Below are positions 21,001-27,000 of a stretch of DNA of 51,153 bases, piece by piece (within the stretch, counting starts at the first letter, position 1; each line of letters begins with the position of its first letter). Location of the stretch: the IMG/VR virus record IMGVR_UViG_2939521961_000005, one strand, 5' to 3'. Made by a program: the position numbers. The stretch comes from a virus. Lineage: Duplodnaviria > Heunggongvirae > Uroviricota > Caudoviricetes.

Positions 21001-24000
21001 AATAATTGCTACGGTCAGGTATCCCGGCGAGATCAGGAAAGTGCGCTGGCGTGCTGGGGTATCGACAGATAAGCAGAATATTTTGCTTAAAAATGACGTT
21101 GGCCAACGCGGGCAGATAACACGAAATCCTGCGAACTGGCAAAACCCAAGTGAATAAAAGTAAAAACCCCGTTTGTTGGTTGCAAACGGGGTTTTATGTT
21201 TATGGCAGTAAGCTATGGGAGGCTGCCTTGATTGATTTTAGCAAACTGATTAGGGAGTTGCGACTCATGATTAGTCAATTACCAAACTGGAAATTTTTGC
21301 TGGTCTGGAGCATCCCTTTTTTATGGGTAGTATCCCAGTGAATTGTGGCAATTAAGGGGTAGCTATGTCAGACAAACTCATAATGCTGGCGAAGATCCTC
21401 TGTGTAATCGTCGGCATTTCATTTTCACTAATGCTGGTTGCTCTTTTTCTTTCCATGGGCTGGATGATGTTGTCTTCGTCGGGGCTGCTGGGGTGAGCAT
21501 AAACCGAATGCTTTCCGCGTTTACCGTTATTCTGCTGGTGGTCTGTGGTGCGCTTAGTCTGGGGCTGAATCATTACCGCGATAACGCCATCACCTACAAA
21601 GCGCAGCGCGATAAAAAAGCCAGTGAGCTGGATCTGGCAAACGCAACCATTACTGATATGCAGGTGCGCCAGCGCGATGTTGCTGCGCTCGATGCAAAAT
21701 ACTCGAGGGAATTAGCCGATGCGAGAGCTGAAAATGAAACTCTGCGTGCTGATGTTGCCGCTGGTCGTAAGCGCCTGCGGATCAACGCCACCTGCCCCGG
21801 TACCGTGCGTGAAGCCACCGGCACCTCCGGCGTGGGCAATGATGCCGCCGTCGAACTCTCTCCGGTTGCTGGACGAAACGTTCTCGGTATCAGAGACGGA
21901 ATCATCAGCGACCAGGCAGCATTGAGAATGCTTCAGGAATATATCCGCACTCAGTGTATTAACTAGTATTTTTGTTATTCGGAGAATGCATGAAGAAATT
22001 ATTGGTAACCGTAAAGCCTTTTCAGGGAACAATTCCGTTCCGTATTTTGCAGCGTGGTCGTGTTCTTGTTGAAGGTTCGTTCAGTGGTAAATGTACGCAA
22101 TTACACTCCCGGACCTTTCAGGTGAATGCCACGAATGAAGAGCTAACCGTTGAGTGTACGATGAATGCCGCTAAATGCCGCATGGTATCCGCTGCATTAC
22201 AGCCAGTGTGTTGAGCGACCTTATTATTCATGCGCGGTATTGTCGCCGTATTCCTGCTGAGGTAGCCTGAGTTTAACGGACACTCCTTCCTGAAATAGAA
22301 TGGCATCAGAAGGAGCTAATAATGAGCAGAAAAACCCAACGTTACTCTAAAGAGTTCAAAGCCGAAGCTGTCAGAACGGTTCTTGAAAATCAACTTTCGA
22401 TCAGTGAAGGCGCTTCCCGATTATCTCTTCCTGAAGGCACTTTAGGACAATGGGTTACCGCCGCCAGAAAAGGGCTCGGTACTCCTGGTTCCCGCACGGT
22501 GGCTGAACTGGAATCTGAAATTCTGCAACTGCGTAAGGCGTTAAATGAAGCTCGCCTTGAGCGAGATATATTAAAAAAAGCAACAGCGTATTTTGCACAG
22601 GAGTCGCTGAAAAATACGCGTTAATCGAACAATGGCGACAACAATTTCCCATTGAAGCGATGTGTCAGGTATTTGGTGTATCCAGGAGCGGTTATTACAA
22701 CTGGGTACAGCATGAACCCTCAGACAGAAAACAAAGTGATGAGCGGCTAAAACTGGAGATTAAGGTGGCACATATCCGCACTCGCGAAACATATGGAACC
22801 CGGCGGCTCCAGACGGAGCTGGCAGAGAATGGCATCATCGTTGGTCGTGACCGACTGGCACGTCTTCGTAAGGAGCTAAGGCTACGCTGTAAGCAGAAAC
22901 GCAAGTTCAGAGCGACTACGAACTCGAACCACAATCTGCCAGTTGCGCCAAATCTGCTGAACCAGACGTTCGCTCCTACAGCACCAAATCAGGTCTGGGT
23001 GGCGGACCTGACGTATGTTGCCACACAGGAGGGATGGTTGTACCTCGCTGGCATCAAAGATGTTTATACGTGCGAAATTGTCGGCTACGCCATGGGAGAG
23101 CGCATGACAAAAGAGCTGACAGGTAAAGCTCTGTTTATGGCGCTCAGGAGCCAGCGCCCACCTGCCGGGCTAATCCACCACTCTGATCGAGGTTCACAGT
23201 ACTGCGCATACGATTACCGGGTCATACAGGAGCAGTTTGGTCTGAAAACATCAATGTCGCGTAAAGGTAACTGTTACGACAACGCTCCGATGGAAAGCTT
23301 CTGGGGAACGCTGAAAAATGAGAGCCTGAGCCACTATCGTTTTAATAACCGGGATGAAGCCATCTCAGTAATACGGGAATACATTGAGATTTTCTACAAT
23401 CGTCAGCGTCGTCACTCTCGTCTGGGGAATATCTCCCCGGCAGCCTTCAGGGAAAAATATCATCAGATGGCTGCTTAAAAAAAGAACAAATGGTAGTGTC
23501 CGCTATTGCCAGTACACCTCATGCATTAACAGAGACCGCAGCCCGACCGGGAGAATCCTCTGCGCGAGTGTGCGGGGATAATCAAAAACGATACACACCG
23601 GGGTTTACCGCGTTAACGGAGCGCGGCGTTGTCCCCTCATGGTCGCTGGTCCGGTGCGATGGTGGAAGAAGCCGGATGTTTATCACTATTAATTGATAAC
23701 ACAGAAATGGATTCATTGATTTTCAGCACGTTTTTGTATTCGTATTATTGAACATCTGTTTATTTTACTTTTAACATATTGATAATAAAAAGAGCTGTAA
23801 ATCTTTAGATGAGTCGATTTTGTCCGGGGAAGTTCAAATGGATTTTATGCTGACGGTTTCTGGTGTGGTTATCCTGTCCATTGCTTATACTGCAGATAAA
23901 TATGGCTGCCATTTGTTATCACGTATTGGCGCTTATTGCTCGTTGATGCTGATTTTCTCGTCGCTTTTTTTTGAGTAAGTTATATTAATTATAACAAATA

Positions 24001-27000
24001 ATTTTCTGTGTTTTTTCAGGCTATCCCGTCAGACGGGAAGCCTGTACTGCCGGGGGACGAATGGAAAACTGATGTGTCCGGTAACTGTGTGTTCTGTGAA
24101 CACCATGTTACTTAATTATGTAATTCATACCCGAACGCTCTGTTGACAGCCTTCTTCTGCAGGCTTCAATAACCCACGCTGAAAAGTTACCGGAACCTTT
24201 ATGTTCAAGGGCGATATTGAGCTGTTCAATCATGTGATTGGGGAAACGGATATTGCGGATTGTGGTTCTGCGGGTCCGGTTTTTCGATGACATTTTCTTT
24301 CCTCTGGTGACAAGCTATATGGAGAGGATTTTACATGGCTGTGCTTCGTACGTTACCGGGCAGAATCAAAACTCTGAACACCCGGCGGGTGAATATTCTG
24401 AAGGGTGAACAGCGTCGTGTCAGTGGCAGTGCACGTGTTTCCCTCAAGCGTCATATCTGGCTCAGGGATGCCGGGCAGTGCTGTCTCTGTGGTCGTGTGG
24501 TTGACCTCTGTGACAGTGAACTCGATCACCGAATTGCACTTCAGTTCGGTGGTGGTAATGAGGAGACGAATCTCTGGACGCTCTGTACCGAATGCCATCG
24601 ACAAAAGTCTGCTCGTGAAGCGGCGGGTGGTATGCCGGACCCGACGCTGCCGGAGGTGTCCGGAGGTCATGGCAGGGCAGACGATATCATCGGACTGTGA
24701 CCCGACCCGGGGGGGGATCATCCGGCGAAAAAAACGATCGCTCCGGACACCGCGCCCCCTCTCACGCAGAGAAAAAATTCCCGTTTCAGGGCAGTTAACA
24801 TGTTAACTGGCTGTCCGGGCATTTTTGCGGTTTTTATCTTTATTATTCAGTTTGTTGTGCGGAAAAAATGTTAACTGGCTTTTTCAGCAAATGTTAACCA
24901 GGCAGCAGTTAACATTTGCGGCATGAGACGCCGGGAAAAATGGGCTGAACCATACCCGGCTGAGTGCGTTCTGGACCCGGGAGGAGGCTGTGCTGACAAC
25001 GCAAAAACGAAAATTTGCGCTGGCGCTCATGTCCGGGAAAAACAAAACAGCGTCAGCCATTGCCGCCGGTTATTCGGCGAAGACCGCCAGGGTTAAAGGC
25101 TCGCAGCTGGCAAAAGATCCGGAGGTGCTTGCGTTTATAGCCCGTAAACAATGCGAGACGGTGGAGGTGGATGAGGTTCCTGTTTACCGGCAGAAAAAAT
25201 CAGAGCAGGAGGATAAACCCCGTCGCCGTGAGGCGGCTGCAATACCACAGCCGGACGAAAACAATCCGGAGATGCCACCGTCCGCGGTGATGTCTCCTGG
25301 TATTGAATATATGGAGGATGGTCTTCCCGATCCGGTGAAAGCGATGGGGCGTCTTCTGGTGGAGAACATTAATACCGACCCCAGGCTGGCGCTGGATGCG
25401 GCTTATAAGCTGGCGCAGTTCACGCACCATAAAAAAGGGGATGCCGGTAAAAAATCGGCAAAAGGTGACGCGGCGAAAAAAGCGGCTAACCGTTTTGCGG
25501 TGCCACCACCACCCCGCCTGGTGGTGAATAATGATAATGAGGGCAACGGATGATACCTGTGTGGAGCACGGCCTGCCCGGACTGGGCAGAGCGCCTGAAA
25601 AAGGGGCTGTCGATTATTCCGGCTCCGATTTATCCGGACCAGGCTGCACATGCACTGGCGATTTTTAAACAACTGCGAATTGTGGATGCACCTGGTAGCC
25701 CGACATTCGGGGAGTCCTGTGCACCGTGGGTGTTTGACCTGGTGGCGGCCCTGTTTGGCTCCTACGATGCGCAGACCGGTGTTCGCCATATCAAGGAAGT
25801 GTTTATCCTTATCCCCAAGAAAAACTCGAAGTCCACGCTGGCTGCGGGGATCATGATGACGGCGCTGTTACTGAACTGGCGGCAGGCGGCGGGCTACACC
25901 ATTCTGGCCCCGACCGTGGAGGTGGCGGCTAACGCCTTCAACCCTGCCAGGGATATGGTACGACGGGACGATGATCTGGATGACCTCTGTCAGGTGCAGA
26001 CCCATATCCGGACCATCACCCATCGGGTGACGGACACCACCCTGAAGGTGGTGGCAGCCGATCCGAATACGGTGTCCGGTATCAAGTCCGTGGGGACACT
26101 GATTGATGAACTGTGGCTGTTTGGCAAGCAGTACAAGGCGGAAGACATGCTACGTGAAGCCATCGGCGGGCTTGCCTCCCGTCCGGAAGGGTTTGTGGTG
26201 TATACGACCACCCAGTCGAATGAACCGCCCGCCGGGGTGTTCAGACAGAAACTGCAGTATGCCCGGGATGTCCGTGACGGCAAAATTCATGATCCGCACT
26301 TTCTGCCGGTGATTTTTGAGCATCCTCCTGAAATGGTGGAAAGCGGGGCTCACCTGCTGATGGAAAACCTCGCCATGGTTAACCCGAATCTCGGTTATTC
26401 GGTGGATGAGGCCTTTCTGTACCGGGAGTACCGTAAAGCCCGGGAGGCTGGTGAGGAAGCATTTCGTGGCTTCATGTCAAAACACGCCAATGTGGAAATC
26501 GGTCTTGCCCTGCGTTCTGACCGCTGGGCGGGCGCGGATTTCTGGGAGCAGCAGGGCAGGCGCGTCAGCCTGGACGATATCCTGCAGCGCGCTGATGTGG
26601 TGACGGTGGGGATTGACGGCGGGGGCCTGGATGATCTGCTGGGAATGTACGTGACTGGCCGTGACAGGGAAACCCGCGAATGGCTGGGCTGGGGCCATGC
26701 CTGGGTGCATGAAACCGCGGTGGTCAGACGGAAGAGTGAGGCATCCCGGTTTCAGGATTTTGTGGCCTGTGGAGACATGACGATTGTCCGTCGGGTCGGG
26801 GATGACACGGCGGAAGTGGCGGAGTATGTGCGTCGTATTCATGAGGCTGAGTTACTGGATCATATCGGTATTGACCCGTCAGGTGTGGGGCAGATTCTGG
26901 ATTCACTGGCGGAAGCCGGGATCCCCGATGAGAGTGTGGTGGGGATAAGCCAGGGCTGGAAGCTGGGCGGGGCCATCAAAACCACCGAGCGCAAACTGGC

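Follow-up and report, generated by a model that had tools for sequence, protein, structure and literature searches.

Positions 23525-24335 of the window, by which we mean the whole 51,153-nucleotide stretch of DNA analyzed here, form a variable slot for accessory genes, placed where the late operon of an E. coli lambda-like prophage ends. The products of the slot are most likely a small inner-membrane accessory protein and a small DNA-binding protein. Our preferred reading, to which we give somewhat better than even chances, is that this is the right-end accessory ("moron") slot of an HK97-head-type lambdoid E. coli prophage, with a real small gene in the cassette. The region is ordinary: it is routine mosaic accessory cargo in the already known bor slot, it gives no sign of a new type of system, and RefSeq already lists both of its genes as hypothetical or DUF proteins. 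The features referred to below are as follows.

22258..23521, plus strand: IS600 (1264 bp), from alignment to the uninterrupted locus and reading of its ends
23525..23676: right part of the conserved linker (60% GC), left homologous flank of the variable slot
23677..24138: AT-rich accessory cassette (462 bp), a variable, moron-like insert, from composition and junctions against relatives
23720..23748, plus strand: candidate sigma-70 promoter for the small ORF, TTTTCA-17-TATTAT, from a consensus scan
23838..23978, plus strand: 46-codon ORF, an exact match to RefSeq WP_000347013.1 (hypothetical protein)
24017..24044: strong hairpin, CAGGCUaUCCCG-UCAGA-CGGGAAGCCUG, between the convergent ORF and ylcI, from folding
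24108..24293, minus strand: ylcI/ynfO-family gene, 61 aa, DUF3950, RefSeq WP_001341372.1, from Pfam, NCBIfam, and PHROG
24335..24700, plus strand: HNH endonuclease gene, first gene of the HK97-type packaging module, from Pfam HNH, phrog_589, and RefSeq
24395..24423, minus strand: candidate ylcI promoter CTGACA-17-CAGAAT, inside the HNH coding region, a consensus-scan match only

The slot and its flanks

The interval begins directly after an IS600 copy, as the element ends at 23521 and its target duplication at 23524. The boundaries of the element were set by alignment to the uninterrupted O26:H11 11368 locus (L001) and by reading the ends directly (TGAGGTAGCC... and ...GTACACCTCA); it is flanked by a 3-bp target duplication, TGC, at 22255-57 and 23522-24. 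The FORC_028 strain has a 1264-bp copy that is 100% identical to it, and for which the RefSeq name is IS3-like element IS600 family transposase. The insertion point lies inside a conserved GC-rich linker, which in its full form comes after Rz or a 74-aa ORF. The right part of this linker (23525-23676) keeps 94-97% identity in loci where the adjoining cassette differs or is just 76% identical. Its folding is ordinary (z -0.5 and +1.2), and the ORF that crosses it has starts and stops that are inconsistent among 89 loci.

The first-pass annotation had treated the entire interval as an AT-rich spacer before the packaging module. This description stands for 23677-24138, but not for the first 150 bp, which belong to the conserved linker. 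The cassette has 35.9% GC against a window mean of 52.7% (with a standard deviation of 6.6% for 200-bp windows), and the windowed GC check that had been proposed places the lowest 200-bp window of the 51 kb at position 23701 (32.5% GC).

The mosaic structure is demonstrated by comparison with JLK-2012, BP-4795, and vB_EcoS-569R3, which places the cassette junctions at 23676/23683 and 24139/24159, so that the last 10 codons of ylcI fall within the cassette and the conserved 5' two-thirds of the gene serve as the right homologous flank. Related phages have this part of ylcI in common, as well as the linker. Between these same flanks, vB_EcoS-569R3 has nothing, BP-4795 has 266 bp of a different AT-rich filler in which no ORF is annotated, and the JLK-2012 phage has a cassette with a lipoprotein-like TonB-domain gene. 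Because relatives with the same flanks hold alternative contents or nothing, we read the site as the lambdoid "bor" slot with a moron-type cassette. It had been suggested that lambdoid phages carry bor-type cargo at this position, and relatives bear this out: K-12 DLP12 has borD-ybcV-ybcW between Rz and ylcI, which is also where the TonB-like lipoprotein gene of JLK-2012 lies. Mechanistically, alternative AT-rich cassettes may be exchanged by recombination between two homologous flanks, one being the GC-rich linker that follows Rz and the other the 5' two-thirds of ylcI on the minus strand.

Of 5426 complete E. coli genomes, 734 (about 1 in 7) carry the cassette, which was found in no other species; the strains concerned include O157:H7, O26, O103, O121, O145, and O104:H4. 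Across 80 IMG/VR loci the linker, AT-rich upstream segment, ORF, spacer, and ylcI keep a constant order in every locus long enough to show it (three stop short). The block travels as a unit and adjoins either an HNH gene plus HK97-type terS or a lambda Nu1-type terS. Given how common the cassette is in complete E. coli genomes, a real function, whether of the small protein or of the widespread, unstudied YlcI/YnfO family, would bear on the biology of Shiga-toxin-type prophages.

Likeness to bor regions and to morons

The slot has the same late-operon position as the lambda bor region and the borD-ybcV-ybcW-ylcI segment of DLP12. Both here and in DLP12, a minus-strand ylcI stands beside the first packaging gene and a small plus-strand ORF (ybcW in DLP12) converges on it. 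The cargo, however, is unrelated, with no similarity to Bor, YbcV (DUF1398), or YbcW here, and packaging is of the Nu1/NohD type there, whereas here it is HNH plus an HK97-type terminase. The placement of a minus-strand ylcI immediately upstream of the first packaging gene is shared with K-12 DLP12 (ylcI-nohD), O104:H4, BP-4795, and JLK-2012.

A moron is an accessory unit within a phage operon that is transcribed independently (PMC3594210); morons have been defined, and the expression of bor from repressed prophages described, in PMC3594210 and PMC7067206. Like morons of the HK97/HK022 type, the cassette is a discrete insert absent in close relatives, of deviant base composition, with a small predicted membrane protein within the late operon. 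With the flanks shared, vB_EcoS-569R3 lacks it and BP-4795 and JLK-2012 have something else in its place; its GC content differs from that of the surrounding genes. A terminator of its own was not found: the hairpin at 24017-24044 has no 3' U-tract on either strand, was not called as a terminator by the scan, and is not conserved in the SHP24 allele, a diverged version of the cassette. Nor was any canonical terminator found after the ORF, in which the cassette differs from the HK97-type morons, as it does in having a promoter that is only a consensus match and an ORF that showed no similarity to gp15 or YebO in homology searches. HK97 gene 15, itself a moron, encodes a small inner-membrane superinfection-exclusion protein (PMC3594210); by analogy with gp15, superinfection exclusion would be our first-ranked guess for any role in host benefit.

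The 46-codon ORF

The small hydrophobic ORF proposed in the AT-rich region was recovered as an exact RefSeq call, and PGAP calls it in RefSeq genomes. A purine-rich GGGGAAG lies 5-11 nt upstream of its ATG. Its product has a mean Kyte-Doolittle hydropathy of 1.11 and two hydrophobic segments, and AlphaFold2 places helices at residues 2-22 and 24-44 (pLDDT 72). The model is that of a predicted two-helix hydrophobic hairpin, which would sit in the inner membrane.

Whether such a protein is made has to be weighed against the alternative that survives best, which we consider unlikely, if still to be taken seriously: that the ORF is not a gene and the cassette is non-coding AT-rich filler. It might then be a scar of recombination, a spacer bound by H-NS, or a zone that acts as buffer and 3' UTR between the late and convergent ylcI transcripts, and would persist by hitch-hiking with widely spread STEC prophages. 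The length and hydrophobicity of the ORF are compatible with chance: an ATG ORF with 46 codons or more turns up in 45% of dinucleotide shuffles of the cassette, the hydrophobicity is equaled in 7% of the longest chance ORFs (counting those with 30 codons or more), and the T-rich strand of the cassette favors hydrophobic codons. The ORF is also an orphan confined to E. coli. It has no family or domain match in Pfam, NCBIfam, PHROG, or PADLOC, the homology searches found no relatives outside E. coli prophages, and the papers searched gave no match. Frameshifted or truncated variants are in circulation (P0002, P0008, and P0010), and close alleles differ by four non-synonymous changes to one synonymous, giving a dN/dS near 1. 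As most copies are near-identical, intactness says little. Filler at this place has a precedent in BP-4795, and the spacer at 23979-24110 is strongly structured (z -3.45 on the plus strand and -3.30 on the minus strand); for K-12, RNA-seq data list ybcW and ylcI as a pair with convergent, overlapping transcription (PMC12288877).

What tips the balance toward a real gene is the sole deeply diverged allele, that of SHP24. At 76% nucleotide identity over the cassette, it retains a 45-codon ORF, the ATG, and an SD-like GGGGAA motif. Substitutions relative to the ORF here are mostly conservative, with a dN/dS of about 0.28, and a permutation test, which like the dN/dS rests on the 25 differences to this one allele, gives P ~0.015 for a frame staying open by chance with this few non-synonymous changes. 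Neither allele has any other reading frame open. Among the 80 loci, variation is lowest in the ORF and highest in the spacer that follows it; the segment upstream of the ORF is also better conserved than that spacer. On its own the ORF is compatible with chance, and the coding support, which is comparative only, is modest. We regard the ORF as most likely a genuine small gene, of recent origin and restricted to E. coli.

The YlcI-like gene

The minus-strand gene at the right of the cassette had been called YlcI-like. It is a true DUF3950 member with coordinates identical to the RefSeq call, and a full member of the YlcI/YnfO family by three profile libraries and by gene context: Pfam DUF3950 (PF13132) at 67 bits against a cutoff of 25, NCBIfam YlcI_YnfO_N (NF041551) at 34.1 bits against a cutoff of 30, and phrog_949 at E 7.6e-31. 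In the family alignment the N-terminal 49 residues are invariant and the tails variable; the gene here differs from the family in its C-terminal 10 residues, which are cassette-specific. The contents of the region had also been described as uncharacterized, and this remains so, as no family library or paper searched gives a function.

Judging from the predicted structure, the product may be a DNA-binding protein, small and basic, of the ribbon-helix-helix type. As in Arc/MetJ/CopG, the Omega repressor, and AtaR-type antitoxins, the N-terminal tail is basic, and two helices joined by a G-S-G-N turn come after a short extended segment (IRFP). The AlphaFold2 monomer has a basic tail/coil and helices at 19-32 and 37-59; unlike in the ribbon-helix-helix proteins, no strand is predicted. 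YlcI differs from them further in having no significant sequence or structure match: Foldseek gave six weak matches (E >4), three of which are ribbon-helix-helix proteins, and PDB and Pfam profile searches for ribbon-helix-helix similarity were negative.

A bolder reading of both genes, which we think improbable, is that the 46-residue protein founds a new small inner-membrane family, restricted to E. coli prophages, with a lysogen phenotype. That phenotype could be, for example, superinfection exclusion or the action of a membrane-acting abortive-infection toxin. Transcriptional interference with the convergent ylcI gene would set the expression of the protein, and YlcI would be a ribbon-helix-helix regulator, the YlcI/YnfO regulator then acting at the cos-proximal end of lambdoid genomes.

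Expression of the cassette

No transcript data for the cassette were found in the papers and supplements searched, and the following model is built from gene orientation and consensus scans. As the late genes and the ORF run in the same direction, Q-antiterminated late transcription would extend to the ORF during lytic growth. In the lysogen, the ORF may also be read from its own sigma-70-like promoter, the -10 of which is retained in the SHP24 allele as GATAAT, a different 5-of-6 hexamer. As a class, sigma-70-like sites are not significantly enriched (4 found vs 1.9 +/- 1.3 expected from shuffles). The ylcI gene would be read from the opposite strand, and since the start codons of ylcI and the HNH gene are just 41 bp apart, its promoter must be within the HNH gene. 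From there, ylcI would be expressed in the lysogen and shut down by converging late transcription.

Another explanation, to which we assign a low probability, makes the 46-aa protein a toxin that damages membranes, belonging to an abortive-infection module or to one resembling type I toxin-antitoxin systems; an antisense or convergent RNA, such as the ylcI transcript or a minus-strand transcript from near 23770, would keep it in check. The predicted product is suitably small and hydrophobic, with its two predicted helices; there is a minus-strand promoter-like site at 23801-23773; and ylcI converges on the ORF without a canonical terminator between them. Such modules do travel in these phages, since the FORC_028 strain has a related prophage of the same type with a hokD toxin gene in its early region. 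However, the promoter-like site at 23801-23773 is directed away from the ORF, with which it has no overlap, and the consensus scan finds no antisense promoter-like site within the ORF. No Rfam family matches within 21000-26000 at E up to 1, and no PADLOC defense model matches the cassette. Unlike Hok, Ldr, TisB, or Ibs, the product has two hydrophobic segments and no charged tail. The ORF is moreover intact in a decaying prophage that lost ylcI, which is unexpected if ylcI transcription is the antidote.

That the cassette is bor-type virulence cargo of the lambda kind, a gene for an outer-membrane lipoprotein that the lysogen expresses, agrees with the position of the slot (DLP12 borD and the JLK-2012 gene) and is refuted for this window, as it has no Bor-like or lipoprotein ORF: DUF3950 is the only Pfam family matched by ORFs in 23525-24335, neither a signal peptide nor the cysteine context of a lipobox is seen in the 46-aa product, and apart from ylcI there is no minus-strand ORF longer than 44 aa.

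A class II holin identity for the 46-aa product was also considered and rejected, as it has no Pfam or PHROG holin match and ends in SLFFE, without a basic tail. Homology to the annotated O26:H11 prophage (L001) places the class II holin gene about 2 kb upstream of Rz.

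Layout and composition

The interval 23525-24335 belongs to a lambdoid E. coli prophage whose head genes are of HK97 type. It had been described as starting at the right end of an IS600 element, and since that element ends at 23521 and carries a TGC target duplication, the interval does begin directly after it.

Features in and around the interval
Up to 21966: Rz/Rz1
21990..22214: 74-codon ORF between Rz and the linker (RefSeq WP_000735655.1)
22258..23521: IS600, 1264 bp, with TGC target duplication, placed by alignment to the uninterrupted locus of O26:H11 strain 11368 and by reading its ends
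23720-23748: sigma-70-like site TTTTCA-17-TATTAT, 5' of the small ORF (consensus match)
23838..23978, plus strand: small ORF, 46 codons (RefSeq WP_000347013.1, "hypothetical protein")
24017-24044: 28-nt hairpin in the spacer, with a T-run on its 5' side
24108..24293, minus strand: ylcI (RefSeq WP_001341372.1, "YlcI/YnfO family protein")
24335..24700: HNH endonuclease gene, right of the interval
24990..25553: terS, after a repeat-rich intergenic region and followed by terL

Both ORFs named in the first-pass annotation, the small ORF and the YlcI-like gene, have coordinates identical to those of RefSeq PGAP.

Mean GC across the window is 52.7% (standard deviation 6.6% in 200-bp windows), and the lowest 200-bp value in the whole 51 kb, 32.5%, is found at 23701. 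The AT-richness first ascribed to the entire region holds for 23677-24138 (35.9% GC; the "cassette"), but not for the first 150 bp (23525-23676; the "linker"), which are 60% GC. Rather than one spacer, the interval is therefore a composite of three parts (GC-rich linker, AT-rich cassette, ylcI), and the AT-rich insert has a foreign composition.

The linker matches phrog_6954, labeled "Rz-like spanin." As a gene it was rejected, the starts and stops of the ORF crossing it being inconsistent in 89 loci and most copies truncated; as a structured RNA it was also rejected, its folding being unremarkable (z -0.5 and +1.2). We treat it as a conserved noncoding joint or a decayed remnant. The linker ORF not being credible, IS600 broke no credible gene here.

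A polymorphic accessory slot

Phages JLK-2012, BP-4795, and vB_EcoS-569R3 share both flanks with the window, at 94-97% identity in the linker and 92-96% from 24139/24159 rightward. What separates these flanks differs: essentially nothing (~40 nt) in vB_EcoS-569R3; in BP-4795, a 266-bp AT-rich filler that is unrelated and has no annotated gene; and in JLK-2012, a cassette of 653 bp that includes a TonB-domain, lipoprotein-like gene. In the K-12 prophage DLP12 the order is rzpD/rzoD, borD (minus), ybcV (minus), ybcW (plus), ylcI (minus), nohD. The position between Rz and ylcI is therefore the classical bor position and is polymorphic, in line with the original suggestion that lambdoid phages carry bor-type cargo here; for bor-type content itself, the reading is excluded in this window. 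The right junction falls within ylcI, in agreement with an alignment of the family that is near-invariant over residues 1-49 and shows C-terminal tails of varied sequence and length. The slot is exchangeable by recombination, with the two conserved flanks as its bounds. In short, the feature is moron-type cargo (morons being independent accessory transcription units in phage operons) in the bor slot, an ordinary piece of prophage mosaic that is already annotated and functionally blank; the first-pass observation is confirmed and its interpretation sound.

Of 5426 complete E. coli genomes, 734 carry the cassette, mostly as a single copy, and these carriers include strains of O157:H7, O26, O103, O121, O145, and O104:H4; the cassette was not located in strain Sakai. 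Across 80 IMG/VR loci the order is constant (linker, AT-rich upstream segment, ORF, spacer, ylcI), and the unit adjoins either HNH and an HK97-type terS or a lambda Nu1-type terS. Three loci (L009, 3001-3541; L010 and L011, 222-762) were considered as a third packaging context and rejected, as they are deletion derivatives in which the cassette runs, from the equivalent of 24083, directly into mid-terS (25289). With this deletion ylcI, HNH, and cos are gone, and there is a stop in terL; the small-ORF variant of this decaying prophage (P0007) is intact, its nucleotide identity being ~96% across the ORF and ~90% across the aligned part of the cassette.

Is the small ORF a gene?

The main rival reading, that the small ORF is spurious and the cassette filler, is one we hold to be less likely. 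Among dinucleotide shuffles of the 462-nt cassette, 45% have an ATG ORF that reaches 46 codons or more; when the longest chance ORF of a shuffle has 30 or more codons, it is equally hydrophobic in 7% of cases, hydrophobicity being favored by the T-rich strand. By itself, then, the small ORF is not beyond chance. It has zero matches in Pfam, PHROGs, NCBIfam, and PADLOC; a word-indexed search and an exhaustive HMMER search (1.84 billion representatives) returned only near-identical E. coli copies, the remaining HMMER matches being repetitive proteins, and in a species-representative scan no representative genome of another GTDB species encodes it. Some variants are frameshifted or truncated, a 3'-terminal T8 run being part of the cause. 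Neither the supplements of a Sakai small-gene Ribo-seq paper nor those of an enterobacterial microproteome preprint contain the peptide, and the RefSeq accessions are not mentioned in the literature searched.

Pointing the other way is the one deeply diverged allele, that of strain SHP24, which is 76% identical over the cassette and 81% over the ORF. Its frame is still open for 45 codons, with the ATG and the GGGGAA before it in place. Most of its substitutions are conservative (V/I, S/A, M/I), with fewer of the kinds F/L, S/F, Y/C, T/N, C/Y, and H/P; there are 12 synonymous and 13 nonsynonymous differences from the window (dN/dS 0.28), and when the same substitutions are placed at random, only 1.5% of trials keep an open frame with 13 or fewer nonsynonymous changes. 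Variation among the 80 loci is lowest in the ORF, at 22 variable columns per 100 nt; of the five segments running from linker to ylcI, the spacer 3' of the ORF varies most, with 46 such columns. Close alleles show four nonsynonymous changes and one synonymous, counts too small to inform. AlphaFold2 predicts helices at residues 2-22 and 24-44 with moderate confidence, which fits two hydrophobic segments parted by a conserved DKYG..LLSR loop. The ORF has been kept in the sole diverged lineage available, and we lean slightly toward its being a translated gene.

Signals around the small ORF

At the sigma-70-like site the SHP24 -10 element reads GATAAT, likewise five of six; promoter-like sites in the region are no more frequent than in shuffles. 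Upstream of the ORF there is a 35-nt AT-rich block (23758-23792; GTTTATTTTACTTTTAACATATTGATAATAAAAAG) whose sequence the window shares with O104:H4 and with the SHP24 allele (76% identical), and that differs at one base in a fourth allele. It is better conserved than the small ORF itself, and it overlaps a minus-strand promoter-like site (23801-23773). A Fur box in the GATAAT-rich upstream region was rejected, the best match (12 of 19) being the mode of the shuffles.

No clear terminator separates the small ORF from ylcI, which converges on it; the analogous K-12 pair ybcW-ylcI is listed among convergent overlapping transcription units (PMC12288877). The spacer (23979-24110) is far more stably folded than its shuffles, with z near -3.4 for either strand. 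Because of its 5' T-run, the hairpin is no canonical terminator on either strand, and it is not kept in SHP24. A 10-nt inverted repeat (23698-23707/24003-24012) flanks the ORF, but chance alone would give roughly one pair of this kind per 1.6 kb. A 25-codon minus-strand ORF (24029-24106) that begins 2 nt past the ylcI stop (MVFTEHTVTGHISFPFVPRQYRLPV), in poorly conserved spacer, is probably due to chance.

YlcI

The YlcI-like assignment stands, as ylcI encodes a bona fide, full member of the DUF3950 (YlcI/YnfO) family; ~380 clusters of relatives were found, nearly all from E. coli. The ylcI and HNH start codons are divergent and 41 bp apart, so the ylcI promoter must sit within HNH; a consensus promoter match is found at 24423-24395. 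With ylcI antisense to the late operon, the layout is typical for lysogen-expressed accessory genes such as bor (PMC7067206).

The YlcI sequence runs basic tail, IRFP, helix, GSGN turn, helix, and the AlphaFold2 monomer has a basic low-confidence tail followed by helices at 19-32 and 37-59. Together with a marginal HicB-like PHROG match (E 0.094) and the fact that three of six weak, nonsignificant Foldseek matches (E above 4) are ribbon-helix-helix proteins, the sequence pattern suggests a ribbon-helix-helix DNA-binding protein. Against the PDB nothing was significant by sequence, profile, or Foldseek, the PDB and Pfam profile searches being empty. Our literature search found no functional study of the YlcI/YnfO family, whose names occur only in mutation tables and gene lists; this, and the small ORF's want of a family, bear out the description of the contents as uncharacterized.

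Possible roles

We propose that the small ORF would be transcribed with the late genes, and perhaps also from its own promoter, and that its product may insert in the inner membrane as a helical hairpin. ylcI would be expressed in the lysogen, opposed by converging late transcription, and YlcI is predicted to bind DNA. By analogy with the HK97 gene 15 moron (PMC3594210), superinfection exclusion or another membrane-level accessory role ranks first as a guess for the small ORF, held with low confidence. A type I toxin reading has little support; an Rfam scan of 21000-26000 (E up to 1) found no known sRNA or toxin-antitoxin RNA, the sole match being a chance VR-RNA outside the interval. PADLOC gave no defense model for the small ORF, YlcI, or the 74-aa ORF.

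Neighboring elements

The 74-codon ORF at 21990-22214 aligns only with positions 100-172 of phrog_2571, a profile of 291 positions, and looks like a fragment of a longer family; some relatives carry it and others do not.

IS600 has entered this locus repeatedly and independently. In the window it sits within the GC-rich linker (22258-23521, TGC duplication), and in FORC_028 (locus L012, 21453-22716) at the equivalent of 24076-78, between the small ORF and ylcI. In the IMG/VR locus L030 (1452-2715 and 3388-5051), one copy is oppositely oriented and sits where 23553-55 would be, while others interrupt ylcI near 24224. With four or more sites in ~700 bp of uninterrupted sequence, this small locus may be an IS600 target hot spot.

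Between HNH and terS, at 24791-24919, the motif (A/C)ATGTTAAC(TG) recurs four to five times, in both orientations, and a G-run/A-run stretch lies just upstream (~24704-24760). Probably these correspond to the repeats recognized by the terminase small subunit and to the cos region of the HK97-type packaging module.
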